Shown in pieces: positions 6,148 through 40,000 of a DNA stretch of 40,000 nucleotides. Both the position numbers and the translations under genes were made by a program. Within the stretch, counting starts at the first letter, position 1; the number at the start of each line of letters is the position of its first letter. A model generated the notes under the pieces. The model did no database searches. It was not told where the DNA came from and saw only the letters and a program-made list of their open reading frames with translations. Origin of the DNA: Candidatus Peregrinibacteria bacterium (GTDB lineage Bacteria > Patescibacteriota > Gracilibacteria > UBA1369 > LOWO2-01-FULL-3); assembly GCA_018655275.1 (NCBI GenBank), contig JABIJZ010000002.1, positions 195,748-235,747 of the forward strand. The letters run 5' to 3'.

Positions 6148-6654
6148 TTATCTATTCAAAGTCGAAGCAATCCTTTCCCAAGCAACCTTACGAGCATCTC
6201 CAACCGAACCTATAATTCCACTACTAGCTGCCAAAGCATCAACCGCTCCATTAACCTTACGAACAGCCAAAGCTTTACCGATAAGACCTCCAACCTTGAG
6301 AGAAACAAGTCTTTCAGCTCCCTCAGGCCGTACAGGATAAGCTTCATCAACAGGTGAAGTTACTCTCTTTGCACCATATCCAGACAAAGAGCTAAGCACA
6401 CCGTGAAAAGCCTCATTAGTCACAACTTGAGCAGAATCAACATCAACACCAGTTGCTTCCACGTACCCCCTCAAAGCATTAGCAAGAGCCCTATATTCAG
6501 GAACTTCAGGTCCAGGAATAGCTTTATACTGAACATGATCTTCCCAATCAGCTCCAGTTGCATCTATAACATCATCATCACTTCCAACAACAGACAATTT
6601 AGTCACAGCACCAGCTGCATCAGCAGCCCCTTTATCTTCAATTCTATCAATCAT
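6148..6654 (-). CDS. small acidic protein, paralog 1 of the 'LRxY..FPVR' triplet
   Basis: ORF 6148..6693. I prefer the ATG at 6654 (MIDRIEDKG..) because its upstream context, TTTAACCATAGAAAT-ATG, matches that of paralog 2. Motifs ALRGYVE and AYPVRPEG. Confidence 0.65.
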   Translation of the reverse strand: MIDRIEDKGAADAAGAVTKLSVVGSDDDVIDATGADWEDHVQYKAIPGPEVPEYRALANALRGYVEATGVDVDSAQVVTNEAFHGVLSSLSGYGAKRVTSPVDEAYPVRPEGAERLVSLKVGGLIGKALAVRKVNGAVDALAASSGIIGSVGDARKVAWERIASTLNR

Positions 6655-6679
6655 ATTTCTATGGTTAAATATTTTATTA

Positions 6680-7102
6680 TTATTTAGATACAACTTCCCT
6701 CAAAATCAAACCTATCCTCCCCCTAATATCAGAAGTTTCTTCATTAGAAACACCCTTCGTCAAATTTGAAAGAGCAAGTCCAAACCGATTCAACACAGCC
6801 GATTCTTCTGACTCCATACTCGCTTCCGGATCCACAGATGATCCTTCAACCACCTCAGGACGTACCGGGAAAAGATCCGTAATAGACCCTTCAGGCCTAC
6901 CACAAATTTCTTCACCCAAAAGCCGAACAATACCTTCAAACGCCAAATTCGCACGAACCTCAGGCCCCAATTCATCAGGGGTTTCACTATCAGCAAAAGA
7001 ATGTTCCATATAGCCTCTCAAAGAATCTGCCAATTCACGAAGACACACATCCTCAAACACTCCATCTCCCTCACTACCTTGTTTTCCCTTGTCTGCACTC
7101 AT
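6680..7102 (-). CDS. small acidic protein, paralog 2 of the triplet
   Basis: ORF 6680..7150. I prefer the ATG at 7102 (MSADKGK..) because it lies downstream of two promoters. Motifs SLRGYME and LFPVRPEV. Confidence 0.65.
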   Translation of the reverse strand: MSADKGKQGSEGDGVFEDVCLRELADSLRGYMEHSFADSETPDELGPEVRANLAFEGIVRLLGEEICGRPEGSITDLFPVRPEVVEGSSVDPEASMESEESAVLNRFGLALSNLTKGVSNEETSDIRGRIGLILREVVSK

Positions 7103-7131
7103 ATTATTATGGTTAAAATTTTCCGGGCACG

Positions 7132-7160
7132 ACTCTAATGAATCGCACAAACTTTGTCAA
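7132..7160 (-). promoter_or_regulatory. promoter TTGACA-17-TAGAGT (minus strand), proximal to paralog 2
   Basis: Read from the reverse complement. Confidence 0.45.
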
Positions 7161-7190
7161 TTTAAAATCACAACAAAGCATAAGAATGTT

Positions 7191-7218
7191 ATTATATACA
7201 CTTTTTCAAAGTTGTCAA
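7191..7218 (-). promoter_or_regulatory. promoter TTGACA-16-TATAAT (minus strand), distal to paralog 2
   Basis: Perfect hexamers on the reverse complement, preceded by GGGG. Confidence 0.5.
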
Positions 7219-7240
7219 CCCCTACCCCCTCACGAACCTA

Positions 7241-7705
7241 CTACATCTCTTTCGTAATAACCTCAGCAAGGACAGCTTCCACCCCACTTCTATAAGAAAC
7301 TGTAAGCAGTTCTGGTTGAGCAGCTCCACTAAACACGGCAGCAGCAAAAAGCACTTTCTTTTTAGCTTCCACTCCCCCTGAAACTGGAGTAGGCGAAGGA
7401 TCAGCACCATCACGAACCGGAAAAGCATCCTCAATAGATACAAAACCTTCAGGCAACGCCTCTCCCATCAATTCAACAATAGAACGATAAGCAAAATCAA
7501 CTCTCCTTTCTATACCTCCGCCAACATCACCATCATTTTCCTCATTTATAACATTTTTTTGCGCCCCAATATAATCCCTCAAAGCACATACAAGCCTCTC
7601 TTGGGGAGAATACGCTCTGTCATTTTCTTCAGCTAGCACAGCTCCTTGGACCAGCGCCAAGCCATAAACTTCCGAAACATCTAGATCACCTTCATTATCA
7701 GCCAT
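7241..7705 (-). CDS. small acidic protein, paralog 3 of the triplet
   Basis: 154 aa with motifs ALRDYIG and AFPVRDGADP. Has its own promoter. Confidence 0.65.
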   Translation of the reverse strand: MADNEGDLDVSEVYGLALVQGAVLAEENDRAYSPQERLVCALRDYIGAQKNVINEENDGDVGGGIERRVDFAYRSIVELMGEALPEGFVSIEDAFPVRDGADPSPTPVSGGVEAKKKVLFAAAVFSGAAQPELLTVSYRSGVEAVLAEVITKEM

Positions 7706-24236: not shown

Positions 24237-24329
24237 TTAAACTAATGTTAATCAATCCAAGAAAGTATTATATAACTTTTTTCAAAGAAATCAAGCTTCA
24301 AACAAAGAGATTTGTTATATAATCCAGCC

Positions 24330-25262
24330 ATGAGTTTCATCAAAGACTTCCAAAAACTGTATTGGGCCTCTCCTGTTGTAAAAAACTGGACCAGGCAAAG
24401 CGAAAACTGCGAATACGGAGATATTTGTGTAGTCTCAAAAAACTGCTTCCTATGTTTCAACAGCTCAAACCTAGAAAACTGCTACTATTGTTATTCATCG
24501 CGCAAAAACTACGACTGCAACGGCCTAATGTTCTGCGAACACTGCACCATGTGCTACGAATGCATGGACTGTCACAGATGCAACAACTCCGACCACTGCC
24601 AAGACTGCGACAACTGCGCAAACTGCCAATATTGCTACGACTGCAAATCCTGTAACGACTGTTTTGGCTGCGCAAGCTTAATGCACAAAAAACACCACAT
24701 CTTCAACAAAAAACACTCAAAAGAAGAATATGAAGAACGCCTCAAAGAAATCCAAACCTGGCCCCAAGAAAAAATCGAAGAAGAATTTGAAAAAGTAAAA
24801 ATCTCAAAGCCACGATGCTACATGCACCAAACAAAATGCACAAACTGCATCGGAGACTACGTCGAACACAGCAAAAACTGCTACTGGATCTTTGACAGCC
24901 GCGACTGCGAAGACAGCTTCTACATCATGGAAGCCTGCCTAGAACACGGCTGCAAAGACTGCGCAGACTGCGGCCCCATCGCAAACAGCTTCGAACAATG
25001 CTACGACGTCTGCTTCGCAGGCTACCTCAACAACTGCCACCACATTTATTGGGCAGATTATATCTCAGATTGCGATTGGTGCACTAGCATTTGGGACTGC
25101 AGGAAGTGCTTTGGTTGTATTTACATGAAGAATAAAGAATACTGTATCTTAAATAAAAAATACTCAGAAAAAGAGTATGAGGAACTCACAAAAAAATACA
25201 AAAAGGAATTGTTAGACGCAGGTATTCAGGATCTCTACTCCTTAATCCATTACAAATGCTAG
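24330..25262 (+). CDS. cysteine-ladder protein, short form (about 310 aa)
   Basis: About 41 Cys by hand count, with runs of Cys every third residue and two modules each ending in the cap motif. I prefer the ATG at 24330 over the track's TTG at 24312. Confidence 0.8.
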   Translation: MSFIKDFQKLYWASPVVKNWTRQSENCEYGDICVVSKNCFLCFNSSNLENCYYCYSSRKNYDCNGLMFCEHCTMCYECMDCHRCNNSDHCQDCDNCANCQYCYDCKSCNDCFGCASLMHKKHHIFNKKHSKEEYEERLKEIQTWPQEKIEEEFEKVKISKPRCYMHQTKCTNCIGDYVEHSKNCYWIFDSRDCEDSFYIMEACLEHGCKDCADCGPIANSFEQCYDVCFAGYLNNCHHIYWADYISDCDWCTSIWDCRKCFGCIYMKNKEYCILNKKYSEKEYEELTKKYKKELLDAGIQDLYSLIHYKC

Positions 25263-25641: not shown

Positions 25642-27285
25642 ATGACAACCAATAATTGTAAAACCTGCTCAGCCAAATACGACATCACCCCTGAAGACGA
25701 GAAATTTTACGCAAAACTAGACCTTCCATCCCCCACTCTCTGCCCAATCTGCCGAAACAAACGCAGAATGGCTTGGCGCAACGACCGAAGCTTCTACATA
25801 CGAAAATCAGATAAATCAGATGAACAATTCATTTCAATATACCCAGAGAAAACTCCTTTCCCAGTATGGAAACCCGCAGAATGGTACGCAGAAGACTGGG
25901 ATCCCCGCGATTACGGCCAAGATTACGACTTCAACAAACCATTTTTCGAACAATGGAACGAACTCCTCCAAAAAGTCCCACGCCTAGGCATCGACATCGT
26001 TCACTGCGAGAATTCAGAATACTGCAACTACTGCGGAGACGACAAAAACTGCTACCTCGACATCGCCGGCGAAGCCAACGAAGATTGCTATTTCAATTTA
26101 TTCACAAAATACTCACGCGACTGCGCAGACAACACCTTTGTATACAAATCAGACCTCTGCTACGAATCTCTTCACTGCCACACCTGTCACAACGTCCGCT
26201 ACTCAATGCACATGGAAGGATGCGCAGACTGCGCATTCTGCTTTGACTGCAAAAGCTGCCAAAACTGCCTCTTCTCATACAACCTCCGCCACAAAAAATA
26301 CTACATTTTCAATGAAGAACACACAAAAGAAGAATACGAAAAGAAACTCAAAGAACTCAACCTCGGCTCATACAGCAACACACAAATAAGCCTCCAAATT
26401 TGGGAAGACAAAGTCATCAACAAAGCCATCCACCGCGACCAATACAACGTCCAAACCGAGGAATGCTCAGGCAACAACATCAAAAACTCAAAAAACTGCC
26501 GCGAAACATACAACGCAACAAACTGCTGGGACTCAAACTTCTTGTACGACGTCCTAGACACCAAAGATTGCTACGACCTCAACTATTCACTATACAAACC
26601 CGAAGTCGCCGCAGAGCTCATTTCTACACTCAACATGAGATACTCAGCCTGCAACATGGCCTCTCACTACTGCCACAACACATTCTACTGCGACATGGTC
26701 AACAACTCAGACTACTTATTCGGCTGCATCTCGATAAATCGCGGCCATTACTGCATCCTGAACAAACAATACACCGAAGAAGAATACAAAGAACTTTTCC
26801 CAAAAATCGTCACCCACATGCGCCAGACTGGAGAATGGGGCGAATTCTTCCCAGCCAAATACTCCCCTCCCGGATACAACGAAACCATCGCCCAAGAATA
26901 CTTCCCCTTAACCGAAGAACAAGCAAAAAAAGAAGGCTTCAATTGGAAACCAAAAGACAAAACCCCACCAAAGCCCCAGACATACAAAATTCCAAACAAC
27001 ATCAAAGACGTTCCAAAAGAAATCACAAAAGAAATCCTCGCCTGCGAAACCTGCGGCAAAAACTTCCGCCTCATCGAACAAGAACTCAAATTTTACCGCC
27101 GCCAAGAGATCCCAGTCCCCCATACTTGCCCAGACTGCCGCCACGAAGCCCGCCACCGCCTCCGCAACCCACGCATACTCAACCAACACAAATGCGGAAA
27201 ATGCTCAGCCCCAATCACAACCACCTACCACAAAGAACTCCCAAATATTTACTGTGAGAAGTGTTATTTGGAGAGTGTGTATTAG
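25642..27285 (+). CDS. cysteine-ladder protein, long form with N- and C-terminal Zn-ribbon caps (547 aa)
   Basis: N-terminus reads CKTC..FYAKLDLPSPTLCPICRNKRR. Two Cys-ladder modules follow. C-terminus reads CETC..FYRRQEIPVPHTCPDCRHEAR..CGKC..CEKC. Confidence 0.85.
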   Translation: MTTNNCKTCSAKYDITPEDEKFYAKLDLPSPTLCPICRNKRRMAWRNDRSFYIRKSDKSDEQFISIYPEKTPFPVWKPAEWYAEDWDPRDYGQDYDFNKPFFEQWNELLQKVPRLGIDIVHCENSEYCNYCGDDKNCYLDIAGEANEDCYFNLFTKYSRDCADNTFVYKSDLCYESLHCHTCHNVRYSMHMEGCADCAFCFDCKSCQNCLFSYNLRHKKYYIFNEEHTKEEYEKKLKELNLGSYSNTQISLQIWEDKVINKAIHRDQYNVQTEECSGNNIKNSKNCRETYNATNCWDSNFLYDVLDTKDCYDLNYSLYKPEVAAELISTLNMRYSACNMASHYCHNTFYCDMVNNSDYLFGCISINRGHYCILNKQYTEEEYKELFPKIVTHMRQTGEWGEFFPAKYSPPGYNETIAQEYFPLTEEQAKKEGFNWKPKDKTPPKPQTYKIPNNIKDVPKEITKEILACETCGKNFRLIEQELKFYRRQEIPVPHTCPDCRHEARHRLRNPRILNQHKCGKCSAPITTTYHKELPNIYCEKCYLESVY

Positions 27286-28000: not shown

Positions 28001-28936
28001 ATGAACGACCCAAAACAAATCGCCGAGAACTTCGTCCAACTCTACCGAGAATTAGTTCATCGCGAACCACACATTTCAGTCCACGTATGGCTATCCGACA
28101 ATTCCGACTATTGCGACCAAATCGACCGCTGCAAAAACTGCTATCTCGTTTTCAACAGTCTCCAATCCGAAGACTGCATGTATATGTACGACTCAAGATG
28201 GAGCAAAAACTGCAGCGACATATCTTACTGCAATCATTCAGAACTCTGCTACGACTCTCTCGATCTCGAAAAATGCTACAACTGCGACCACTGCCAAGAC
28301 TGCACAAACTCAAATGACTGCCAATACTCATACGATCTTCGAAACTGCAACAACTGCCTCGGATGCGCAGGCTTGAGACACAAAAACTACCACATTTTCA
28401 ACAAACCTTACTCAAAAAAAGAATACGAAGAGCTCACAAAAAAACTCCTTAAAAATCCAGGGAAAATCGAAAAACAGCTCGAAAAGCTTTGCCTCGAAAT
28501 CCCTCACGTCGCTCTCCACACCCAAAACACAGAAAACTGCTTCGGGAACTACGTAGTAAACTCCAAAAACTCATACTGCATCTTCAAAACACACAATCTC
28601 GAAGATTGCATGTATATGCACGACACCCAAAGAGAAAAAGATTGCATGGACTGTTTTGTAGGAAACGAATCAGAACTTGCTTACGGCTGCACCGAAAACT
28701 CCAAAATCTACAATTGTAATTTTTCATACTGGTGCGCCAACAACATCGATTGCGAATACATGATGTATAGCTTCAGCTGCAAGAACTGTTTCGGATGTTT
28801 CAACCTCAAACACAAAGAATATCGCATTCTCAACAAACAATACACGAAAGAAGAATACGAAAAACTCCTCCCAGAAATCAAAAAATCACTCCGAGAAAAA
28901 GGCCAATACATGAACTTCCTACCAGACGTAATGTAA
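28001..28936 (+). CDS. cysteine-ladder protein, short form (311 aa)
   Basis: Alignable with 24330..25262 and has the same two cap motifs (CLGCAGLRHKNYHIFNKPYSKKEYEEL and CFGCFNLKHKEYRILNKQYTKEEYEKL). Confidence 0.8.
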   Translation: MNDPKQIAENFVQLYRELVHREPHISVHVWLSDNSDYCDQIDRCKNCYLVFNSLQSEDCMYMYDSRWSKNCSDISYCNHSELCYDSLDLEKCYNCDHCQDCTNSNDCQYSYDLRNCNNCLGCAGLRHKNYHIFNKPYSKKEYEELTKKLLKNPGKIEKQLEKLCLEIPHVALHTQNTENCFGNYVVNSKNSYCIFKTHNLEDCMYMHDTQREKDCMDCFVGNESELAYGCTENSKIYNCNFSYWCANNIDCEYMMYSFSCKNCFGCFNLKHKEYRILNKQYTKEEYEKLLPEIKKSLREKGQYMNFLPDVM

Positions 28937-29772: not shown

Positions 29773-32700
29773 ATGAGTAGTAAAGAAACAGGTAGATGGG
29801 AACCATCTCAAAGCCAAATGGTTACACGCGTATGGACCCCTGACGAAGTCGAGGAACAAACAGCCCCCGAGGGAGAAGCTTTGCGAACCCTGTCCACAAT
29901 TTACAGCAGGAGAATCAAAATAATGGCCGCAGAAAAAGACGCCTTGCCAGGAAAACCAAGAGCAAAAAGACTTCAACAACTCATCGGGAAAGTAAAACAT
30001 GACATAGCAACAAAAAGACGCGCAGGAGACTCTCACGAAAACAGAATCCAATACATAAAAGAATCCGCAGAGATCAAAGAAATCCAAAGACTATATCTCG
30101 AACTCGGAATAGCAGAAATGATAGTGCTCGGAGATTGGAGCGTTAGCAGGACCAGCGAAATCCCAGAAGCAATGGGGATAGATTCCGGACCACACGAAAC
30201 AGCCCCATTTGCAACACTGGAATCAGAGATTCTATACTTCTATGAAGAACATGGGGTAGTAGATGCATCAAAACTAGGAGACAAGCTAATTCACATGGAC
30301 ATAGGGTGCGGAAATGCAGTAGTAGGACAATCTCTAAGAACCGACAACCTCACAAGTCCATTTGGAAACAACCGAACTTTACCAGACTACTGGGGAGAAG
30401 TAGGGTTCGCAGATAGAATGTACTTCTCAATCAATGACCTCATCGCATCATTCATAAAAGAAGAGCACAGAGAAAACCCAGCCCTTCACGAATTCATCAA
30501 CACAGTAGCAACTCTCCTCACAAGAAGACTTTACTTCGGGAAAGACAAACTTGACCCAACATTAGCAAAACTCCCATCAGACCCAAATCAAATCGTAAAA
30601 ATCTTCAAAAAACTACATTTTTTCATAAAAAACTTCAGCACTCTATTGAACCCAGATAAAAAAACAATGGTAGACGTAGAATTTTTATCTGACGAAGCAA
30701 GCCAATTGACACCAGAATGCAGAGAGTTAGTAGAAGAATATTTCTACGGCCCAGAAATTAGAGAGAAAATTGAGAACAGCACTTCAGCAGTATGGATAGG
30801 AGACCACCAAAATCGAACAATCTTTGTAAATCGCAAATTTTGCGAGATGACAGGTAAAACCAAAGAAGAGCTGAAAGGCAAAACTAAAGAAGAACTAAAT
30901 CTATGGCGAGCCACAAAAGGAAACCTTGGTGACCCAAAAAGAGAAGGAACACTAAAACTCGCAACTGGCTTCAATGCAAATGTAAACTTGCACTCACCAA
31001 GACTAGGACCTAAGGCAGTAATTATAACCATGCCAGGCGAAACAGAAGAACAACACCTTTCGCAGACCCTAATAACAAGTCGCGAAAGATGGCAAACCAA
31101 AGTCGAAGAGTACGAGAAAACAGCCTCACAAGAATTCCTCGACAAATACTTCAAACCTGAATTCCACGGATCAACAAAAAAACTAGATGAACAAATCGCA
31201 AAATTAGATGAAAAACTTGCAGAAGCCGAAAGAATCCGAATAGAAATCCACGAAGCTGCAAAAGCCGCATACGCAACATTCACACAGCCTATAACCCCTG
31301 ATGCACAAAAGACGATAGAATCAGAGAGAACAGCAGTCAACCAAAGAAGAACAGCTTGGGAAGACACCAGACAACAACTAACAGACGAAAGACGTCACCT
31401 AATTGACCAAAGAGACCTCCTCAACCTAGCAAGCCACGTGACAATTCACCCCCACAACGTAATACTAGGAGACTTCGACGAATTTGGGGAAATAATACCA
31501 GATCAACCCCTTATAAACTTAGCCACATTATTCAGGTCTAGCTCCCACGCAACAGACACTCAATACACAAAACTGACAGAAACAACAGCCAAAAGACTCG
31601 CACCCGGAGGAATCATAGTATGCGACGGCAAAAAAGAGTCATACACAAGATTCGAACGACTGGAAGAACTCGAAGCACTACAAAAAAAACTCGGCACAAA
31701 CTACAAAATAAGCGCAATTGTAGATACACAAGGAGCAATAAGATCTATCTTGATAGAACGCATATTAGTAACTAAAGAAAATAAAAAAGCATTCTTTTCA
31801 GACGATCATAAAGAAGAAGCATTAATCCCAGACTGCTCACTCATACCAATATCAGACGTTCAAACCCATCTACCTAGACTAGCATTCAAAAACCGCATAA
31901 TAAAAGCTCTCAAAGAACTAATCATAGATCCAAGAGTCAAAGCAGCACCAGAAGACAAAAAAGGAGATACCCTATTCCAAAGCAGACTACTTTTCAAAGG
32001 TATACACGAAATAATAGACGCAGTTGTAGAAAAAACTGAAAACCTCGACGAAGCAATCCTCCAAATAGCCCAACAATCAGACCTAGTTCGCCAACAACTA
32101 GACGCATCAAAACAAGGAACATCACTAATGCATCCGGACTTTAGAATCACAACATACCCTAGAAAAACCAAAACACTTTCGGAACCAACCAACGAAACAC
32201 GATCCTTCAGAGCCCAATCACTTCCAAGAAATCTAGACATACCAAACTTAAACCACCCAGCCATCGAATACCATAAGAGAATAGCAATAAATTGCTTACT
32301 AAAACTGAGACTATTCACAGGCAAATCACCAATAAAAGTAATTGAATTCGAAGGGTGCTTCACAAACACTCCAATGATAACAACATTACGAAACCTACTC
32401 GGACAAAACTTCGAAGACCTTGTAGAAATAGAAACCGTATCTCCTAACAACCCTGCTCCAAACATTGACGACAACACCATATATATCATCGGAGGCAGTA
32501 TAAAATCAGTCAACGACCCAGAAGGCAAACAATTCACACAAAATTTTTCACAAAAGCTACTAGAAAGAATCCAGGAAGGTGCCAACATACGAGCATACGC
32601 AACATGCTATGGATCAGAAAGTATATTAGAAGCCTTTGGAAACATGAGAGATAACCTAACAGTAGAAACAACACCGGGAGCCCTACAATTTGGAGCATTT

Positions 32701-33231
32701 CCAATAGAATTCACTCAAGACACCACCCCCTCAACAGAGCATCTAGCCGGCAAACAAGCAACAGTCACATTCACAAGAGGAGAATACTCAGAAGTAGAAG
32801 GCTATGAAGATGTCGACGACATGCAACCACTCGCATTCGAATGCAAAGAAGATGAACAAGGAGAACTAGTCACAGACCCATCCCGACCAATAAGCTTTTC
32901 ATTGCTAGACGGAGCAGTAATCACAGCCCAACCTCACTTCGAAGTTAACCTAAAAAGAGAACAAGACCTCGAAACCCTCCGCAGACACCTACAAAGATCG
33001 GCAAGAGAAACAACATCAGAATTTAGTCCAACACAAACAACCACAAACGAAAAAGAACGACACAAGTTCACAACAAACCCATCACACATCTACACTCACC
33101 AAGTAGATATCCCAGCTGTAAACGCCCAAGGTACAAAAACTCAATGGCTTGAAAACGACGTAGGAGCAGCATTATTTGCGCCAATACTAGCAACACACGC
33201 AAAAAAAACCTTAAACCAGCTAGCAACCTAA
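29773..33231 (+). CDS. 1152-aa multidomain protein: interrupted SAM-methyltransferase-like region, PAS-like region, coiled coil, and C-terminal class I glutamine-amidotransferase-like region
   Basis: Motifs: HMDIGCGNAVVG (aa ~174), AVWIGDHQNRTIFVNRKFCEMTG (aa ~339), a heptad-like Glu/Lys/Ala-rich stretch (aa ~430-550), LGDFDEF..AKRLAPGGIIVCDG (aa ~565-619), and IYIIGGS..AYATCYGSESILEAFG..AQPHFEV (aa ~903-1057). Confidence 0.8.
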   Translation: MSSKETGRWEPSQSQMVTRVWTPDEVEEQTAPEGEALRTLSTIYSRRIKIMAAEKDALPGKPRAKRLQQLIGKVKHDIATKRRAGDSHENRIQYIKESAEIKEIQRLYLELGIAEMIVLGDWSVSRTSEIPEAMGIDSGPHETAPFATLESEILYFYEEHGVVDASKLGDKLIHMDIGCGNAVVGQSLRTDNLTSPFGNNRTLPDYWGEVGFADRMYFSINDLIASFIKEEHRENPALHEFINTVATLLTRRLYFGKDKLDPTLAKLPSDPNQIVKIFKKLHFFIKNFSTLLNPDKKTMVDVEFLSDEASQLTPECRELVEEYFYGPEIREKIENSTSAVWIGDHQNRTIFVNRKFCEMTGKTKEELKGKTKEELNLWRATKGNLGDPKREGTLKLATGFNANVNLHSPRLGPKAVIITMPGETEEQHLSQTLITSRERWQTKVEEYEKTASQEFLDKYFKPEFHGSTKKLDEQIAKLDEKLAEAERIRIEIHEAAKAAYATFTQPITPDAQKTIESERTAVNQRRTAWEDTRQQLTDERRHLIDQRDLLNLASHVTIHPHNVILGDFDEFGEIIPDQPLINLATLFRSSSHATDTQYTKLTETTAKRLAPGGIIVCDGKKESYTRFERLEELEALQKKLGTNYKISAIVDTQGAIRSILIERILVTKENKKAFFSDDHKEEALIPDCSLIPISDVQTHLPRLAFKNRIIKALKELIIDPRVKAAPEDKKGDTLFQSRLLFKGIHEIIDAVVEKTENLDEAILQIAQQSDLVRQQLDASKQGTSLMHPDFRITTYPRKTKTLSEPTNETRSFRAQSLPRNLDIPNLNHPAIEYHKRIAINCLLKLRLFTGKSPIKVIEFEGCFTNTPMITTLRNLLGQNFEDLVEIETVSPNNPAPNIDDNTIYIIGGSIKSVNDPEGKQFTQNFSQKLLERIQEGANIRAYATCYGSESILEAFGNMRDNLTVETTPGALQFGAFPIEFTQDTTPSTEHLAGKQATVTFTRGEYSEVEGYEDVDDMQPLAFECKEDEQGELVTDPSRPISFSLLDGAVITAQPHFEVNLKREQDLETLRRHLQRSARETTSEFSPTQTTTNEKERHKFTTNPSHIYTHQVDIPAVNAQGTKTQWLENDVGAALFAPILATHAKKTLNQLAT

Positions 33232-34484
33232 ACCATCGCCGCAAGCGACAACTCTATAAGCTTCGCATATTTTTCAATAAATTCATTCTCAAAAATCTCC
33301 AACTTCTTTTCAGGACTAGTATATAGAGACAAAGTTCCAACCAATTTAGACTTGAAAACCAAAGGAATCAAAAGCAAAGAACAGAGATTGTTTTTATTAG
33401 CCAAAAACTTCGACTGATACTTTGGATCCTTCATAACATCAATGATTTTCACAGACCCCTTCTGAACAAAAGCCTTCTCAGCCAAGCCCCCTTTGTATTT
33501 AATACTAGCTTTGCCTTCCCAATCATTTGCCAAACCAAAAGAAGAAAGAAGATCCAACGAATCTCGTTTTTGATTATATAAGCGCAAAACGCACGCATCC
33601 ACTCTCGTCAGCATAATTATAGAACTAACAACGAAATCAGCCATACTCTTCAAATCTCCAGAGCTCCTACAAACATCCAAAAGCTCAAACACATAATCCA
33701 TCTGCCTACGGATCACACCAAATTTATTATAAGCCTCTTTCATTTTCCTATACTTCAACTCCACATCCTCTTCAAACTTAACCTGATTCGTAATATCCCT
33801 AGCAATAATCAGATAAAACGAAACCTTCTTCTTACCTTCAATAAAGATAGGCGTCAATGTCGCAGCAACCAAAATCTTTTTCTTATTTTTGTGCTTCCCC
33901 TCAAGTTCAATATTGTAAATAACTTTAGAACTACTAATAATTTCCCCAACATCCCCTCGAGAGAAAATCCTGCTTATTTTCGCACCAACCATTTCCACCC
34001 CCTTGTATCCAAAAATTATTTTAGCCCCTTTATTCCAAGACTTCACCTTCCCATCCGGATCAAAAGTAATAACTGCATTCGTTGAATATTGAATAGCTTG
34101 ACTGAGAACTTTTTCTTCCTCCTCCTTTTTTTTCAAGTCAGTGAGGTCAGTCATTATACCAATAGTCCCACCATCCGGAAGAGGCGCCCCACTCAAAAGA
34201 ACAGGCACAATCTTCCCATTCTTCGTCAACAAATCCCCTTCATAACTAGAACTAACCCCTTTTTTACGCTCAGAAGTATTCACATTTCTCACTCTCTTAA
34301 CACTTTCCTCAGTCCAAAAATCATAAGACTCCCTCCCTATCATATCCGGCAACTTATAACCAACCATCTTACAAAACTTCGGATTAGCATAAACAGTCCT
34401 TTCATTTTTATCACCAACCCAAACACCTTCATTCATCGTATCAATCAAAGTTTTATAAATCTTACTGTCTGCCAATTTTTTCAT
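33228..34484 (-). CDS. PAS-PAS-GAF sensor protein without a recognisable output domain
   Basis: 418 aa from the ATG at 34484 (the track ORF extends to 34517). Contains two PAS-like blocks (..GVWVGDKNERTVYANPKFCKMVG.. and ..NAVITFDPDGKVKSWNKGAKIIFGY..) and a C-terminal GAF-like region. Confidence 0.8.
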   Translation of the reverse strand: MKKLADSKIYKTLIDTMNEGVWVGDKNERTVYANPKFCKMVGYKLPDMIGRESYDFWTEESVKRVRNVNTSERKKGVSSSYEGDLLTKNGKIVPVLLSGAPLPDGGTIGIMTDLTDLKKKEEEEKVLSQAIQYSTNAVITFDPDGKVKSWNKGAKIIFGYKGVEMVGAKISRIFSRGDVGEIISSSKVIYNIELEGKHKNKKKILVAATLTPIFIEGKKKVSFYLIIARDITNQVKFEEDVELKYRKMKEAYNKFGVIRRQMDYVFELLDVCRSSGDLKSMADFVVSSIIMLTRVDACVLRLYNQKRDSLDLLSSFGLANDWEGKASIKYKGGLAEKAFVQKGSVKIIDVMKDPKYQSKFLANKNNLCSLLLIPLVFKSKLVGTLSLYTSPEKKLEIFENEFIEKYAKLIELSLAAMV

Positions 34485-35610
34485 ATATTTTTTTACGAGT
34501 ATGTTTACTATGAACATGATCCAACCACTCTCTCTTCACACAATCTTTCTCAGATTTTTTGATCTCAACACAATCTCCACTCATCAACCTATAATATATA
34601 TCCTGCTTCCCCCCATTTACAATAGCTGATCGAGCTTTGTGCCCCAAATCAGAATGCAAATGATAAGCAAAATCAACAATAGTAGAACCATTTTCCAATT
34701 TGAACAAATCTCCTTTTGGAGTAAAAACATACACATCCTTCAACTCTTCATCCCCTTGCGAAAGATCCGAGAAATGTTCAACCAATTTCTTTTCCTTTTC
34801 CGTAACCATCTTCGACTTTTTCCCCTTTGCATACAACCAATGAGCAGCAAATCCCTTTTCCGCAAAATCATCCATCGCCCTCGTCCGAATCTGTACCTCA
34901 ATAGGAATATCCAACTTTTCAACAACTTCAATCAATCCAGTATGCAAACTCTGATACCCATTGATCTTCGGAATAGTCACATAATCCTTGAAATAATCCA
35001 CAACCGGATAAAACCGATCATGAAACAAATTCAAAACCTCAAAACACTCATCCACCGAATTCGACTCTAGAACAATCCTGAACGCAAAAATATCATTCAA
35101 TTTAATAGCACTTTTCTTCATTTTTTTTCGAAGTTTTTTGTTGATACTATAAAGATTCTTGTATCGTCCCTTCACCTCACACTCATACCCCTCCTCCTTC
35201 AAAAACACCCGAAAAACTCTCAAAACTTTATTCACAAGACTTTTAGAATTATTTTTATAAACCTTCATCATCTCATCAACATCCTTATACCTTTCATCAT
35301 CAGTAATTTTGAAACAAAGATCATCTAGCAAACTTTTTTCATTAAAAAACCCAAATCTCTCGCATAACTGCGAAAGAACCAACAAATATCTATTCGCCAT
35401 TTTTTTCTCCAATTTCTGATCTTCACACAAACCCAACTGAGTCCTGAAAACTTTGACGAATTCATAAAACACCTCTGGAGATTTAGAAAAACTAGAGAAA
35501 AAATACTGAGAAATCGACTCCAGATTTTTCGCAGACTCATTAACATTCACCAACAACCCGAGCCATCGCTCAAATTCTTCTTTACCTAAATGGATTTTCT
35601 TTAAAACCAT
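34462..35610 (-). CDS. RelA/SpoT-homolog (p)ppGpp synthetase with TGS domain, lacking the catalytic half of the HD hydrolase domain
   Basis: 382 aa. Synthetase motifs GRYKNLYSINKKL, DIFAFRIVL, PKINGYQSLHT, EVQIRTRAMDDFAEKGFAAHWLY. TGS motif VYVFTPKGDLFKLENGSTIVDFAYHLHSDLGHK. The N-terminal ~140 aa has no HD dyad. Confidence 0.85.
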   Translation of the reverse strand: MVLKKIHLGKEEFERWLGLLVNVNESAKNLESISQYFFSSFSKSPEVFYEFVKVFRTQLGLCEDQKLEKKMANRYLLVLSQLCERFGFFNEKSLLDDLCFKITDDERYKDVDEMMKVYKNNSKSLVNKVLRVFRVFLKEEGYECEVKGRYKNLYSINKKLRKKMKKSAIKLNDIFAFRIVLESNSVDECFEVLNLFHDRFYPVVDYFKDYVTIPKINGYQSLHTGLIEVVEKLDIPIEVQIRTRAMDDFAEKGFAAHWLYAKGKKSKMVTEKEKKLVEHFSDLSQGDEELKDVYVFTPKGDLFKLENGSTIVDFAYHLHSDLGHKARSAIVNGGKQDIYYRLMSGDCVEIKKSEKDCVKREWLDHVHSKHTRKKIYEKIGRQ

Positions 35611-35656
35611 CGCAAAACAATTCTAACACATGCCAGCCCATACACAAAAAACCACT

Positions 35657-37270
35657 CTACCACACCTCCCCCAAATAACATTCCTGACAATAGACCTTCC
35701 TGTCAAAATCTTCAGCAAACGTCGTCTGCACAACCTCCCCACACTTCGAACATTTCCGATCAAACAACTTACGCGGCCCCATTTTCTCCCACAACTTATC
35801 AATCCGCACAGCCGGCGCAAGCACCGGCAACGGCAAACCATATTTCTTATAAAACTTCACCTCCGCATCAAGATATTTGAACTTTTTCCCACTCTCAGGA
35901 CAAACAAAAATCTCCTCGTCCACCTCTTCAGCCAAACCACCCTTCTCCCCCGAAACCACCTCTTTCTCATCCATCCATTTCCAACCCTTTTTCAAAACCT
36001 CAGCCTTCTCCAAAGGATAAAACCGCTGAGCCATAGTGAAATTATAAGGATGCGGTGAATATTCAACCGGGAAAAACTCGCCATATTCACCAGTCCCCCG
36101 CATATGCTCAACAATCCGCTCCTTCAACGCAAAATACTCCTCCTCCGAATACTGTTTATTCAAAATACAAAACTGCTTGTGCTTCAACCCAGCACACCCA
36201 AACAAATTCCGACAACTCCTCAATTCAATACAATAATAAATATCCGTAGAAAACCACGGCAACTGCGAAAACTGCTGATTGTAAGCCTTCGGCCCCGCAT
36301 GCAAACACTCATACATCAGCTCCCCCTCATAGATATTCGTATCATAGCAATCCTTGGAATGATGAATGTCCGTGCAATATCGACAATCTTTGCAATTATC
36401 CACCCAATAACAATCCTTCACATTTTTGCAATTCGACAAATAATCCCCCGAGCTCTCCTCAACATTTATCAAAACTCCCGAAGGATAAACTTGGTCCTTC
36501 ATAAACTCATCAAATCGCTCCCGAGCTCCCTCCAAATCTTCCCGACGACCAGTAAAAATCTCTGCCCAAGCTTTTTCAAACTCCTCCTTCCCCACCGATT
36601 TATTAAAAATACAATATTCCTTATTTCTCAAATTCGCACAAAACAAACACTTCCGGCACCCCTTACAATTCATCAAAAACGCCGAATCATTACAATGAAA
36701 AACATTCTGCGAACAAAAAACCGAATAGCACTTCTCCGCCTTCCGCAAATCATACCCAATCTCCGAATCCCGCACAAAAATACACTCAACCATGTTCTTG
36801 CAATACTGAATATTATACCCGTAATAACAATCCCACGAGCCATCCATCTCATCCGTAAAATAACAATTTTTGTTGCGATGCGCACAGATAATATATTCAC
36901 TATTCGTATTCAAAACCGAATTCGAAATATGCCTCGGCACCTCCCTCGCCATCTCAAAAAACTGCTCAAAAAACGGCCGGTCAAAATCAAAATCCCGCCC
37001 ATACTCCATCGCATCAAACTCCTCAGACTCAAAACAATCATTGCAGTAAGCCTTGAGCCCCTCAATGTCCGGCGAAAACCACGACATCGTCGTCCGCTCG
37101 CATTTATCACACGCCCTCATAAAAAAATCCTTCCCCCGCCAAGCCCATCTCCGTCTCTCACGCTCCGCAGGACACAAAGTCGGCAACGGCGCCTCAATCT
37201 TGCGATAAAACTCCTGATCCCCATCAGTAATCTCAAATTTCTCTCCCGAAACTGCACAAATCTTTTCCAT
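35657..37270 (-). CDS. cysteine-ladder protein, long form (537 aa) with eroded Zn-ribbon ligands
   Basis: Collinear with 25642..27285, including the FFEQ linker, both cap motifs and GEYGEFFPVEYSP. The first ribbon at each end has lost Cys residues (CAVSG, CPAER, CPESG, LAPAVR). Confidence 0.85.
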   Translation of the reverse strand: MEKICAVSGEKFEITDGDQEFYRKIEAPLPTLCPAERERRRWAWRGKDFFMRACDKCERTTMSWFSPDIEGLKAYCNDCFESEEFDAMEYGRDFDFDRPFFEQFFEMAREVPRHISNSVLNTNSEYIICAHRNKNCYFTDEMDGSWDCYYGYNIQYCKNMVECIFVRDSEIGYDLRKAEKCYSVFCSQNVFHCNDSAFLMNCKGCRKCLFCANLRNKEYCIFNKSVGKEEFEKAWAEIFTGRREDLEGARERFDEFMKDQVYPSGVLINVEESSGDYLSNCKNVKDCYWVDNCKDCRYCTDIHHSKDCYDTNIYEGELMYECLHAGPKAYNQQFSQLPWFSTDIYYCIELRSCRNLFGCAGLKHKQFCILNKQYSEEEYFALKERIVEHMRGTGEYGEFFPVEYSPHPYNFTMAQRFYPLEKAEVLKKGWKWMDEKEVVSGEKGGLAEEVDEEIFVCPESGKKFKYLDAEVKFYKKYGLPLPVLAPAVRIDKLWEKMGPRKLFDRKCSKCGEVVQTTFAEDFDRKVYCQECYLGEVW

Positions 37271-37302
37271 ATTTAAAAAGATACTATAAAAACATCAAAT
37301 AA

Positions 37303-37554
37303 TCACCTCAGCTTCTTATACACCTGATTACGAAAACCAACCGCAACTAAATCATTAACATTTTTACCCAACCTACTTTTTCTAAACACAACCCTGTATT
37401 TTTTCCTTCGTATCCGGTACAAATCTCTAAACCCCTTCAACTTTTTCACTTCCTCATCACTCAAATCACCAGCCAAGACCTTTTTCATCGCAGCCAGAAG
37501 CATCAAATAATCTCTCTTCGAGATTTTCCGAATTAATCTTTCATATCTATCCAT
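37303..37554 (-). CDS. RelE/ParE-like type II toxin
   Basis: 83 aa with LKGFRDLYRIRRKKYRVVFRK..LVAVGFRNQVY. Overlaps the upstream antitoxin gene by 8 nt. Confidence 0.55.
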   Translation of the reverse strand: MDRYERLIRKISKRDYLMLLAAMKKVLAGDLSDEEVKKLKGFRDLYRIRRKKYRVVFRKSRLGKNVNDLVAVGFRNQVYKKLR

Positions 37555-37789
37555 GTATTTTTTTTGCCGCAGCTTTAAATTTTTCTATATCCAAACCCTT
37601 ATCACAATAAATCCCAAACCCATTATCATCCTCATAATAAACCACCCCATCTCCTTCATCCGAGATAGGTTTTATCAACAAGCCCATATCAGTCTCCTCC
37701 GCAACAAACTTCGAAGTATCAAACTTCTCCCTCCATTTCTTTGGTAATGTGACTTGCCCAGTATTAAACATATTCAATGTGTAGATCAT
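37547..37789 (-). CDS. AbrB/MazE (SpoVT-AbrB)-type antitoxin
   Basis: 80 aa. The N-terminal NTGQVTLPKKWREKF is typical of the swapped-hairpin AbrB fold. Confidence 0.55.
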   Translation of the reverse strand: MIYTLNMFNTGQVTLPKKWREKFDTSKFVAEETDMGLLIKPISDEGDGVVYYEDDNGFGIYCDKGLDIEKFKAAAKKIHG

Positions 37790-39562: not shown

Positions 39563-40000
39563 CAACAAAAACCTGCAAATCTTGCAACAAACCCTTCGAA
39601 ATCACCCCAGAGGACGAAAGATTTTACAAACTTTTTGATGTGCCATCCTCAAACTCATGCCCCGACTGCCGACTCCAACGCCGATTAATGGAACGAAACA
39701 CCAAAAACTTATACTGGCGCAAATGCGACCTAACCGGAGAAAAAATCCTTTCACAATTTCACCCCGACCATCCATTCCCAGTCTACAAAACAGAAGACTG
39801 GTGGTCCGACAAATGGAACGCCCTCGACTACGGCGTAGACTTCAACTTCAACCGTCCATTCTTTGAACAATTCAAAGAGCTCCGCGACCGCATCCCCCAC
39901 TTCGCAATGTACGTAATCCACGGCACCCAAGAAAATTCCGAATACACCAACTGCACCGGCTATCTCAAAAACTGCTACATGATTTTCGAAAGCGACTACG
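39559..40000 (+). CDS. cysteine-ladder protein, long form, 3' end cut by the window edge
   Basis: Hand-translated and absent from the ORF track because no stop falls in the window: MTTKTCKSCNKPFEITPEDERFYKLFDVPSSNSCPDCRLQRR..YGVDFNFNRPFFEQFKEL..NSEYTNCTGYLKNCY. Collinear with the N-termini of 25642 and 37270. Confidence 0.8.
   Translation, partial: MTTKTCKSCNKPFEITPEDERFYKLFDVPSSNSCPDCRLQRRLMERNTKNLYWRKCDLTGEKILSQFHPDHPFPVYKTEDWWSDKWNALDYGVDFNFNRPFFEQFKELRDRIPHFAMYVIHGTQENSEYTNCTGYLKNCYMIFESDY

Follow-up and report, generated by a model that had tools for sequence, protein, structure and literature searches.

Within the window, i.e. the whole 40,000-nucleotide stretch of Candidatus Peregrinibacteria DNA that we analysed, five minus-strand genes follow one another: a toxin-antitoxin (TA) candidate pair, a Cys-rich protein, a short Rel-type (p)ppGpp synthetase and a PAS-PAS-GAF (hereafter PAS/GAF) protein (Table 1). 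A preliminary description took all five for one operon, in which a sensor without an output domain would serve a Rel without a hydrolase and the Cys-rich protein would be a further component. Which of these genes belong together, and what might control the synthetase?

The five ORFs were all found in the ORF listing with the coordinates and spacing described for them. The antitoxin and toxin frames overlap by 8 nt, intergenic gaps of 32 nt and 46 nt follow the toxin gene and the Cys-rich gene respectively, and PAS/GAF, when started at ATG 34484 (the start also used by NCBI's identical 418-aa protein, P0121), overlaps the 3' end of Rel by 23 nt. The Rel ORF has no possible upstream extension, as it is preceded by a stop codon and, 46 nt away, by the Cys-rich gene.

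Table 1. Positions of genes, Rel segments and the promoter-like element in the window.
Feature	Position	Strand	Length or remark
AbrB/MazE-type antitoxin candidate	37547-37789	-	80 aa
ParE/RelE-like toxin candidate	37303-37554	-	83 aa
Cys-rich protein	35657-37270	-	537 aa
Extended -10-like element TGTTAGAAT	35620-35628	-	9 nt upstream of Rel ATG, read directly
Short Rel-type (p)ppGpp synthetase	34462-35610	-	382 aa
Rel N-terminal module, residues 1-64	35419-35610	-	all-helical, family-specific, no detectable HD similarity
Rel helical linker, residues 65-147	35170-35418	-	matches long-RSH positions 153-235
Rel SYNTH domain, residues 148-264	34819-35169	-	catalytic and guanine-binding motifs intact
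Rel TGS domain, residues 293-352	34555-34734	-	Pfam TGS
PAS-PAS-GAF ORF, longest form	33228-34517	-	429 aa
PAS-PAS-GAF, ATG 34484 start	33228-34484	-	418 aa
Convergent methyltransferase-like/amidotransferase-like protein	29773-33231	+	1152 aa

Domain architecture of Rel

Rel consists of an N-terminal module, a helical linker, a synthetase (SYNTH) domain and a TGS domain, with Pfam assigning RelA_SpoT (E=1.5e-31) and TGS (E=2.3e-18) to the last two. Both are alike in sequence and fold to those of the long RSHs, e.g. B. subtilis Rel (6yxa), E. coli RelA (5iqr) and A. baumannii SpoT (7qpr). The best PDB sequence match was 6yxa (E=1.6e-46, query residues 65-376 against 157-478), hhalign against long RSHs gave a probability of 100, and the top Foldseek matches of the AlphaFold2 model (pLDDT 86) were Rel, RelA and SpoT (E=1e-23, TM up to 0.69). 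The motifs picked out in the preliminary description (DIFAFRIVL, NGYQSLHT, EVQIRT and AAHWLY) are each present in the translation, and GRYK..S...K, DIFAFRI, PKINGYQSLHT and EVQIRT align to the Rel/RelA motifs. The catalytic residues of the long-RSH synthetase are all conserved: R149, K151, S155, K159, D173, R178, N217, G218, Y219, Q220, S221, H223, E238, Q240 and R242 do not vary among the 30 family members compared, and the guanine-binding motif PKxNGYQSxH is kept. In the TGS domain AYHLH(319)SDLGH aligns to AYHIH(432)SDVGH of E. coli RelA, i.e. H319, also invariant in 30/30, is the counterpart of H432.

Unlike the long RSHs, this Rel lacks an HD or pseudo-HD domain, and the helical, zinc-finger and ACT/RRM domains are absent too. 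The proposed absence of a hydrolase was borne out by three independent tests: Pfam found HD or HD_4 in none of the 30 family members (E≤10), the profile-profile alignment to long RSHs begins at position 153, past every HD motif, and a custom HD HMM (control loci, 1e-80) matched nothing in the window and nothing in the related loci that it also covered (354 kb). Nor did this HMM find a (p)ppGpp hydrolase near any examined locus. The C-terminal region beyond TGS is likewise missing, as had been proposed; Rel ends ~30 residues past TGS, without the ribosome-anchoring C-terminal domains. The SYNTH and TGS-only architecture without HD is common to all 30 Rel relatives and is therefore a family trait.

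Where the long RSHs have their HD domain, this Rel has its 64-residue N-terminal module, modelled by AlphaFold2 as three helices (pLDDT ~90). It lies outside the hhalign alignment to long RSHs and has a pattern, W..FL...N.ELL..YFF..F...P..FY.F, kept across 30 homologues. A query with residues 1-110, which includes part of the linker, returned 46 matches from 1.84 billion representative proteins, every Rel-type match being ≤431 aa long; the one longer match (2315 aa, E=2.5e-4) is probably a false hit. The linker itself is, by its alignment, the counterpart of the post-HD segment in long RSHs.

RshC (truncated in the helical domain that follows TGS), plant Rsh2/Rsh3 and RickRel/RickSpo are secondarily truncated long RSHs (PMC3153485; PMC7229694). 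RshC resembles this Rel in ending just past TGS, but RshC and Rsh2/3 retain HD. Among the described truncated long RSHs we found neither a SYNTH+TGS-only layout nor a PAS/GAF partner gene.

Gene linkage in related genomes

The PAS/GAF protein has two PAS domains and a GAF domain (PAS_9 E=1.6e-25, GAF_2 E=1e-6) and no other Pfam domain. The earlier view of it as a protein without an output domain is correct both here and in its relatives, as 120 of 120 among the homologues listed have PAS/GAF-type Pfam domains only, with no output domain or fusion. Orthologues are 48-69% identical, and those directly 3' of Rel score E=1e-104 to 1e-209. The first PAS domain contains a cluster, basic and rich in Ser, that is strongly conserved (R73..G76.S78-S79-S80-Y81-E82).

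Clustering at 90% identity reduced the PAS/GAF orthologues of 46 loci to 35 clusters. Rel was directly upstream in 31 of the 33 evaluable non-redundant clusters, the two genes abutting or overlapping (gaps between aligned regions, -11 to +67 nt). The same order was seen in 10/11 evaluable loci on one-genome-per-species contigs (12 Patescibacteria loci), in 3/3 further long contigs queried from Rel and 2/3 queried from PAS/GAF, and in 24 of 27 evaluable metagenome loci found via PAS/GAF. A divergent short Rel (L017) had no adjoining PAS/GAF. As a measure of background synteny we compared 22 representative loci (377 kb): PAS/GAF was present in 22, Rel in 20 and the convergent gene in 16, and the only ORF clusters in more than four loci were these three and their internal antisense shadow ORFs. 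The pairing of Rel with PAS/GAF is conserved in this group, and the genomic result is firm. Such an attached sensor gene further distinguishes this Rel from the long RSHs.

The convergent gene is a conserved neighbour that was absent from the preliminary description. Its stop codon overlaps that of PAS/GAF, and of the 32 clusters evaluable for it, 25 have a homologue directly after PAS/GAF in convergent orientation. The protein has class-I methyltransferase-like regions (~aa 111-325 and 540-717) separated by a PAS fragment and a coiled coil, and a C-terminal class-I glutamine-amidotransferase-like domain. The family profile matches the GATase domain of GMP synthase (E=1.8e-5), Pfam finds GATase in 7/9 members (best 4.9e-9) and Methyltransf_25 in 2/9, and DxGxGxG, PGG..DG..ESYTR, the Cys nucleophile and an H-x-E motif are aligned. 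Homologues are only 22-35% identical, i.e. fast-evolving.

The conserved linkage expected of the whole gene set held for the Rel-PAS/GAF pair and failed for the TA pair and the Cys-rich gene, neither of which was beside Rel in any of 29 orthologous metagenome loci or in other genome loci. The antitoxin candidate matches MazE_antitoxin above the gathering score (E=7.3e-6) and TIGR01439 AbrB (E=2e-4); the toxin candidate matches ParE_toxin below it (E=1e-3) and RelE3 (3bpq) weakly (E=0.48). Two small overlapping ORFs, antitoxin first, is the layout of type II systems with an AbrB/MazE-fold antitoxin and a ParE/RelE-fold toxin, although the toxin match here is sub-threshold, and AbrB/ParE is best described as an ordinary type II TA candidate. 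AbrB or ParE adjoined Rel in two contigs of the same strain (L001 and L002) only, every other locus being devoid of AbrB and ParE hits, and we found nothing that ties the window's pair functionally to Rel.

The Cys-rich protein has N- and C-terminal CxxC...CxxC treble-clef zinc ribbons flanking a Cys-containing repeat core; zf_Tbcl_2 and TIGR04272 match C-terminal residues 500-532 only. Its AlphaFold2 model (pLDDT 81, pTM 0.85) had no Foldseek match in the PDB (best E=4.3). The gene is one of several paralogues, as described, with five copies in the window, and the family, an expanded one, has 2513 homologues, all from Patescibacteria and all unnamed or labelled zinc-ribbon proteins. Its proposed role in the alarmone module did not survive the comparison: only one other locus has a family member near Rel (L088, beyond the convergent gene), and the orthologues in L092 and L093 (67-68% identity) lie in a prs-rpiB-rpe ... 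uvrB context with no Rel nearby. The TA pair and the Cys-rich gene are therefore best regarded as incidental neighbours, and this strain is the only one in which they precede Rel.

In a sequence scan, promoter-like and terminator-like sites were no more frequent or rare than expected by chance, and a two-hexamer promoter scan did not flag the -10-like element TGTTAGAAT upstream of Rel. Several related loci, in which the gene upstream of Rel is different or divergent, have a similar TGn-TAnnAT a short way before Rel, which weakly hints that TGTTAGAAT might be a promoter belonging to Rel-PAS/GAF itself.

Possible control of Rel by the PAS/GAF protein

With modest confidence, we favour a two-gene Rel-PAS/GAF cassette, i.e. 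a sensor-gated synthetase, over a five-gene operon; across the family the sensor has a PAS-(PAS)-PAS-GAF layout. The absence of a (p)ppGpp hydrolase near any examined locus and the L017 Rel without an adjoining PAS/GAF count against this reading. As to physical mechanism, we infer that PAS/GAF would bind Rel, with TGS or the N-terminal helices peculiar to this family as the probable contact site, and would set synthetase activity according to a small molecule or a redox signal. The TGS domain may still sense tRNA, which would give the enzyme a second input. Separate proteins are known to act on RSHs in trans: EIIA-Ntr, ACP, YtfK and Rsd with SpoT, and NirD with RelA. The Rel-DarB complex (8acu) is among the structural neighbours of the Rel model and provides a precedent for control of Rel by a trans-acting protein. 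In DarB-Rel and similar systems a separate protein gates RSH catalytic output, as it would here, although the folds of those regulators are unrelated to PAS/GAF and their targets are full-length bifunctional enzymes; to our knowledge, they are generally not encoded by overlapping downstream genes. Functionally, such control would also be akin to that of an antitoxin that checks a hydrolase-less synthetase. Our literature searches found no PAS/GAF regulator of any RSH.

PAS/GAF could instead mainly regulate the convergent protein, with Rel adjoining through a common regulon or stress context and under no direct control. The large gene follows PAS/GAF in most clusters (25/32), two clusters have PAS/GAF and the large gene without an upstream Rel (L089; L117-119), and the PAS fragment of the window's large protein shares 35% identity with the beginning of the first PAS domain of PAS/GAF. 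In addition, a methyltransferase-like part lies directly upstream, on the same strand, of more distant PAS proteins (L123, L124 and L126). The large protein may therefore depend on PAS/GAF no less than Rel does. However, the link to Rel is tighter (31/33 clusters, same strand), and the overlapping frames imply that translation is coupled. Moreover, seven clusters lack the large gene, all of them clusters that have Rel-PAS/GAF (L008, L009, L010, L012, L015, the L090 group and L121), and its 22-35% identity compares with 48-69% for PAS/GAF. We consider this rather unlikely.

It is less probable still that the cassette is a domesticated TA-like module analogous to toxSAS, in which Rel alone would arrest growth and PAS/GAF would be a neutraliser released by a phage or stress signal. 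Hydrolase-less synthetases in conserved bicistrons are a hallmark of toxSAS, which form a tight bicistron with a neutralising partner (PMC7229694). The Rel-PAS/GAF overlap is similarly tight, and the PADLOC candidate-defence model PDC-S33 matches the SYNTH domain (E=3e-15), but this match is confined to the domain level. SASs (RelQ/RelP/RelV) and toxSAS share the lack of a hydrolase with this Rel, but SASs have no TGS and are distant in sequence (E=4e-7 or weaker, against 1e-46 for the housekeeping long RSHs). The guanine-binding residues of Rel are intact, its partner is a 400-700-aa sensor whereas toxSAS are paired with small antitoxins or SAH hydrolases, and no extra copies or mobile-element signs were seen, whereas toxSAS modules are patchy and mobile.

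It seems very unlikely that PAS/GAF acts after Rel, as a receptor or effector of (p)ppGpp, and not before it as a sensor: nucleotide binding is common among GAF domains and the R73..E82 cluster could hold phosphates, but the protein has no output domain for effector action and our searches found no precedent for a (p)ppGpp-binding PAS or GAF. A single operon and alarmone module of all five genes is barely credible, since the shared strand, the short gaps (32 and 46 nt), the absence of convincing intergenic terminators and the Cys-family gene at L088 are set against AbrB and ParE adjoining Rel in the same strain only, a five-copy Cys family with orthologues located elsewhere, and none of 29 metagenome loci with this arrangement.

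The two-gene Rel-PAS/GAF cassette that we favour is vertically inherited in Peregrinibacteria, Gracilibacteria and Altimarinota (Patescibacteria), and the pairing is apparently undescribed so far. In these bacteria Rel would make (p)ppGpp and be incapable of degrading it, and the on/off control of the enzyme would have shifted to the co-translated PAS/GAF protein.

Gene layout and the Rel-type synthetase

The preliminary description had joined five minus-strand genes into one operon, encoding an AbrB-type antitoxin, a RelE-like toxin, a Cys-rich protein, a hydrolase-less Rel and an output-less PAS-PAS-GAF sensor. We found these five ORFs with the spacing it gave, i.e. gaps of 32 nt and 46 nt before the Cys-rich gene and Rel respectively, and a 23-nt overlap between Rel and PAS/GAF that is present if the ATG at 34484 is used. 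The antitoxin gene, which comes first, overlaps the toxin gene by 8 nt. Domains in the five ORFs were identified with Pfam and NCBIfam. The region belongs to the chromosomal core, with fusA, tuf, a ribosomal-protein cluster, secY, adk, map and rpoA upstream, and is also found on a 1.2-Mb JGI contig; an NCBI protein labelled Candidatus Peregrinibacteria (P0121) is identical to the window's PAS/GAF protein. Between tuf and rplC lie three small acidic ORFs that have common motifs (..LR.Y....; AFPVRP) and look like tandem paralogs.

Codon usage across the window is strongly strand-dependent. Third codon positions are A+C rich in plus-strand genes (A.54, C.27, G.07 and T.12 in the large convergent gene) and, read on their own coding strand, G+T rich in minus-strand genes (G.46, T.41, C.06 and A.07 in the Cys-rich gene). 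Along its whole length the plus DNA strand is rich in A+C, with the cumulative GC skew dropping monotonically to -6.9, and the ribosomal-protein/tuf/secY/rpoA cluster is on this A+C-rich strand. Strand-dependent codon usage is probably the reason why the gene calls of the ENA contig L001, which is from the same strain, show antisense ORFs in place of the large convergent gene.

Features of the window and of related loci (L numbers)
Feature	Locus	Positions	Strand	Remarks
Small acidic ORFs	window	6148-7705	-	three ORFs; 181, 156 and 154 aa
Cys-rich paralog	window	24312-25262	+	
Cys-rich paralog	window	25642-27285	+	
Cys-rich paralog	window	28001-28936	+	
Large convergent gene	window	29773-33231	+	1152 aa
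Inserted PAS fragment	window	30766-30888	+	aa 333-378 of the convergent protein
PAS/GAF	window	33228-34484	-	from ATG 34484
Rel	window	34462-35610	-	382 aa
Cys-rich gene	window	35657-37270	-	
Toxin candidate	window	37303-37554	-	
Antitoxin candidate	window	37547-37789	-	
Cys-rich paralog	window	39565-40000	+	cut by the window end
Second PAS/GAF paralog	L103	11986-13197		
Split convergent gene	L007	12641-17218		
Methyltransferase/GATase-like sets	L105	8631-15441		three successive sets
TA-like pair	L092	9747-10437		87-aa ORF and PIN-domain protein

Rel contains a SYNTH domain (Pfam RelA_SpoT, E=1.5e-31) and a TGS domain (Pfam TGS, E=2.3e-18), the latter found in 30/30 members of its family. Among PDB sequences it is closest to B. 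subtilis Rel (E=1.6e-46; query 65-376 against Rel 157-478), and its AlphaFold2 model (pLDDT 86, pTM 0.80) has Rel, RelA and SpoT as the nearest solved folds. The motifs align with those of long-RSH Rel and RelA (catalytic Asp/Glu, G-loop, guanine-binding), and the synthetase residues GRYK..S...K, D173, R178, PKINGYQSLHT and E238-x-Q-x-R are invariant in all 30 members, so that the synthetase motifs and TGS domain of the original reading were borne out. H319 in the TGS domain is equally invariant and aligns with H432 of E. coli RelA in AYHIHSDVGH, a residue needed for activation of RelA by deacylated tRNA.

The claim that this Rel has no hydrolase was examined by profile alignment and held. None of the 30 family members matched HD or HD_4 (Pfam, E<=10), and a custom HD HMM, for which control loci score 1e-80, gave no match in the window. 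When the 30-member profile was aligned with nine full-length long RSHs (hhalign, probability 100), only long-RSH positions 153-483 aligned; this stretch starts past every HD motif (H48, H72-D73, E76-D77, D139...N143) and ends at position 483 of the 702 in the long-RSH reference, ahead of the zinc-finger CCxPxPGD motif and the ACT domain. The C-terminal ZFD/ACT region is therefore missing as first described: Rel has no helical, zinc-finger (CC) or ACT/RRM domain, and ends 30 residues after the TGS domain. Upstream extension of the ORF is impossible. The first 64 residues of Rel make up a conserved module of helices, and a search with residues 1-110, which include it, gave just 46 matches among 1.84 billion representative proteins. 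The Rel-type matches were all <=431 aa, and the single longer one (2315 aa, E=2.5e-4) is likely to be spurious. Family members are 289-429 aa long and come from sources labelled Peregrinibacteria, Gracilibacteria and Altimarinota. Taken together, the absence of HD, the invariant residues, the N-terminal module and the model show that an N-module, linker, SYNTH and TGS architecture is a genuine trait of the family and no assembly artefact.

Linkage of Rel to a stand-alone PAS/GAF gene

The protein encoded directly 3' of Rel contains PAS and GAF folds (Pfam PAS_9, E=1.6e-25, in two stretches; GAF_2, E=1e-6), and its family profile matches PAS and GAF structures. As had been proposed, it is output-less: no attached output domain (kinase, cyclase, HTH etc.) was found in the window protein or in the 120 homologs listed.

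We used four sources of evidence to determine how often the two genes occur together: a genome collection, long contigs reached from the Rel side, long contigs reached from the PAS/GAF side, and a metagenome scan. In a one-genome-per-species collection, which yielded 12 Patescibacteria loci, a PAS/GAF ortholog (phmmer E=1e-104 to 1e-209) directly follows Rel in 10 of the 11 that could be evaluated. The pair was present in 3/3 long contigs found via Rel homologs and in 2/3 found via PAS/GAF homologs, and a PAS/GAF-seeded metagenome scan gave 29 orthologous loci with Rel upstream in 24 of 27 evaluable. Clustering PAS/GAF at 90% identity reduced 46 loci to 35 non-redundant clusters, and Rel lies directly upstream of PAS/GAF in 31 of the 33 evaluable, with gaps between the aligned regions of -11 to +67 nt. 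An independent check gave a similar picture, in that about 47 of the best 120 Rel and best 120 PAS/GAF matches have identical longest-contig sizes; some of the contigs common to both are merely 1.5-3.5 kb. Across 22 representative loci (377 kb), the ORF clusters found in more than four loci were PAS/GAF (22), Rel (20), the large convergent gene (16) and otherwise only antisense shadow ORFs within these three genes, which means that the block is conserved against a background without synteny. The genomic pattern of the Rel-PAS/GAF pair is strong.

The gene upstream of Rel differs among related loci and is often divergent, so there Rel and PAS/GAF must have a promoter of their own. The window has an TGTTAGAAT element, a motif match only, 9 nt upstream of the start codon of Rel; a generic promoter scan of the window was uninformative.

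Two individual loci show variations. On one metagenome contig (L103) the pair is followed, 5.5 kb further downstream, by another PAS/GAF paralog, which is more divergent. At L016 (CAYUVP010000078.1) Rel and PAS/GAF are intact only with genetic code 25, in which UGA is a sense codon; code 11 gives correct reading frames at all other loci.

Neighbours of the pair

The other three genes of the proposed operon did not share this conservation. The antitoxin candidate has an AbrB/SpoVT/MazE fold (PF04014, 26.3 bits against a gathering score of 24.7), and the toxin candidate is ParE/RelE-like, scoring below the gathering threshold (PF05016, 20.0 bits against 23; E=1e-3) and matching RelE3 (3bpq) weakly (E=0.48). 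No AbrB or ParE homologs were found beside Rel in the other loci compared. The Cys-rich protein has a terminal treble-clef zinc ribbon as its sole Pfam/NCBIfam domain and an AlphaFold2 model (pLDDT 81, pTM 0.85) with no match among solved folds; its 2513 database relatives are from Patescibacteria and are all unnamed or called zinc-ribbon proteins. It is one of five paralogs within 16 kb of the window. Orthologs of it (67-68% identity) are flanked by prs-rpiB-rpe on one side and uvrB on the other, and Rel is absent there; another gene of this family occurs near the pair at a single related locus (L088), on the far side of the convergent gene. We regard the TA pair and the Cys-rich gene as incidental neighbours, and of the original proposal the Rel-sensor pair stands and the five-gene module does not. 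At L092 a different small TA-like pair adjoins a close Cys-rich ortholog, which suggests repeated insertion of TA cassettes next to genes of this family.

The five-gene set also missed a conserved neighbour on the opposite strand. The stop codon of the large convergent gene overlaps that of PAS/GAF, and of 32 evaluable clusters, 25 have a convergent homolog of this gene (22-35% identity) directly downstream of PAS/GAF. A profile built from the family hits the GATase domain of GMP synthase (E=1.8e-5), with Pfam GATase in 7/9 members and Methyltransf_25 in 2/9. In the family alignment DxGxGxG, PGG..DG..ESYTR, a Cys nucleophile and an H-x-E motif are aligned, the Cys in 7/8 sequences and H-x-E/D in 8/8; the window copy has ATCYG and PHFE, and alone is below Pfam significance for GATase. 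Judged by its sequence, the C-terminal domain carries the GATase fold, Cys nucleophile and His-x-Glu of a class-I glutamine amidotransferase and is a putative member of that class. In the window copy, a PAS fragment of 46 residues is inserted into the methyltransferase-like domain and shares 35% identity with the beginning of the first PAS domain in the adjacent PAS/GAF protein; Pfam detected no PAS in any of the other aligned family members. The convergent gene is split into separate GATase-like and methyltransferase-like genes at L007, and at L105 there are three successive methyltransferase/GATase-like sets.

A substantial alternative is that PAS/GAF serves the large convergent protein rather than Rel. 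It is retained mainly because the clusters of L089 and of L117-119 keep PAS/GAF and the convergent gene with no Rel upstream, and because more distant PAS proteins have a methyltransferase-like part upstream on the same strand; on the other side stands the linkage of PAS/GAF to Rel.

A possible rewiring of the stringent response

Under the reading in which PAS/GAF serves Rel, Rel would make (p)ppGpp, and PAS/GAF would bind Rel and set its activity on a ligand cue, standing in for the regulatory domains that were lost; the TGS domain may still sense tRNA. We offer tentatively, at somewhat below even confidence, a rewired stringent response in Peregrinibacteria and Gracilibacteria, in which a dedicated, co-translated PAS/GAF sensor would act in trans on a Rel that lacks its hydrolase and ribosome-anchoring domains, with possible methyltransferase/amidotransferase coupling, and alarmone synthesis would respond to a metabolite or redox cue instead of or beside the starved ribosome.

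Compared with known systems, Rel has SYNTH and TGS in common with the long RSHs (Rel/RelA/SpoT) and lacks their HD or pseudo-HD and C-terminal domains. Identity as a small alarmone synthetase (SAS; RelQ/RelP/RelV) was rejected, as these have no TGS domain and their PDB matches (E=4e-7 to 1e-4) are far poorer than that of Rel (1e-46). Secondary domain loss is known among long RSHs, i.e. in RshC, which ends after TGS and keeps HD, in plant Rsh2/3 and in RickRel (PMC3153485; PMC7229694), and toxSAS modules are hydrolase-less synthetases in bicistrons (PMC7229694). The window pair is likewise a conserved bicistron, but its partner is a large PAS/GAF sensor and its SYNTH domain is Rel-like. DarB (8acu), a trans-acting protein regulator of Rel, is a precedent for gating by a partner, whereas here the link is genomic. 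Neither an RSH family made up of SYNTH and TGS only nor a PAS/GAF partner of an RSH turned up in the literature searched, and as far as that search shows the Rel-PAS/GAF pattern is unreported.

These results indicate that operon modules are over-called when tight spacing on one strand is the only criterion, since two of the five genes form the conserved pair and a further conserved neighbour lies on the opposite strand. How RSHs are switched is a central question of stringent-response biology. To our knowledge, all well-studied RSHs are switched through the ribosome and through C-terminal domains that act in cis, helped by a few proteins that act in trans. This lineage seems to have discarded the hydrolase together with most of the region that regulates in cis, and across deep divergence it seems to have kept a sensor gene that stands alone and is coupled in translation to the synthetase gene. 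No HD domain was detected with the custom HMM in 354 kb around the Rel-PAS/GAF loci, which raises the question of how alarmones are cleared in episymbiotic, genome-reduced Patescibacteria with no RSH hydrolase nearby. If the proposed control is true, the pair would be the first case of a long RSH that is split, with a separate subunit dedicated to sensing. If the sensor does gate Rel, the way in which signals control (p)ppGpp synthesis could be studied in a simple system of two proteins.
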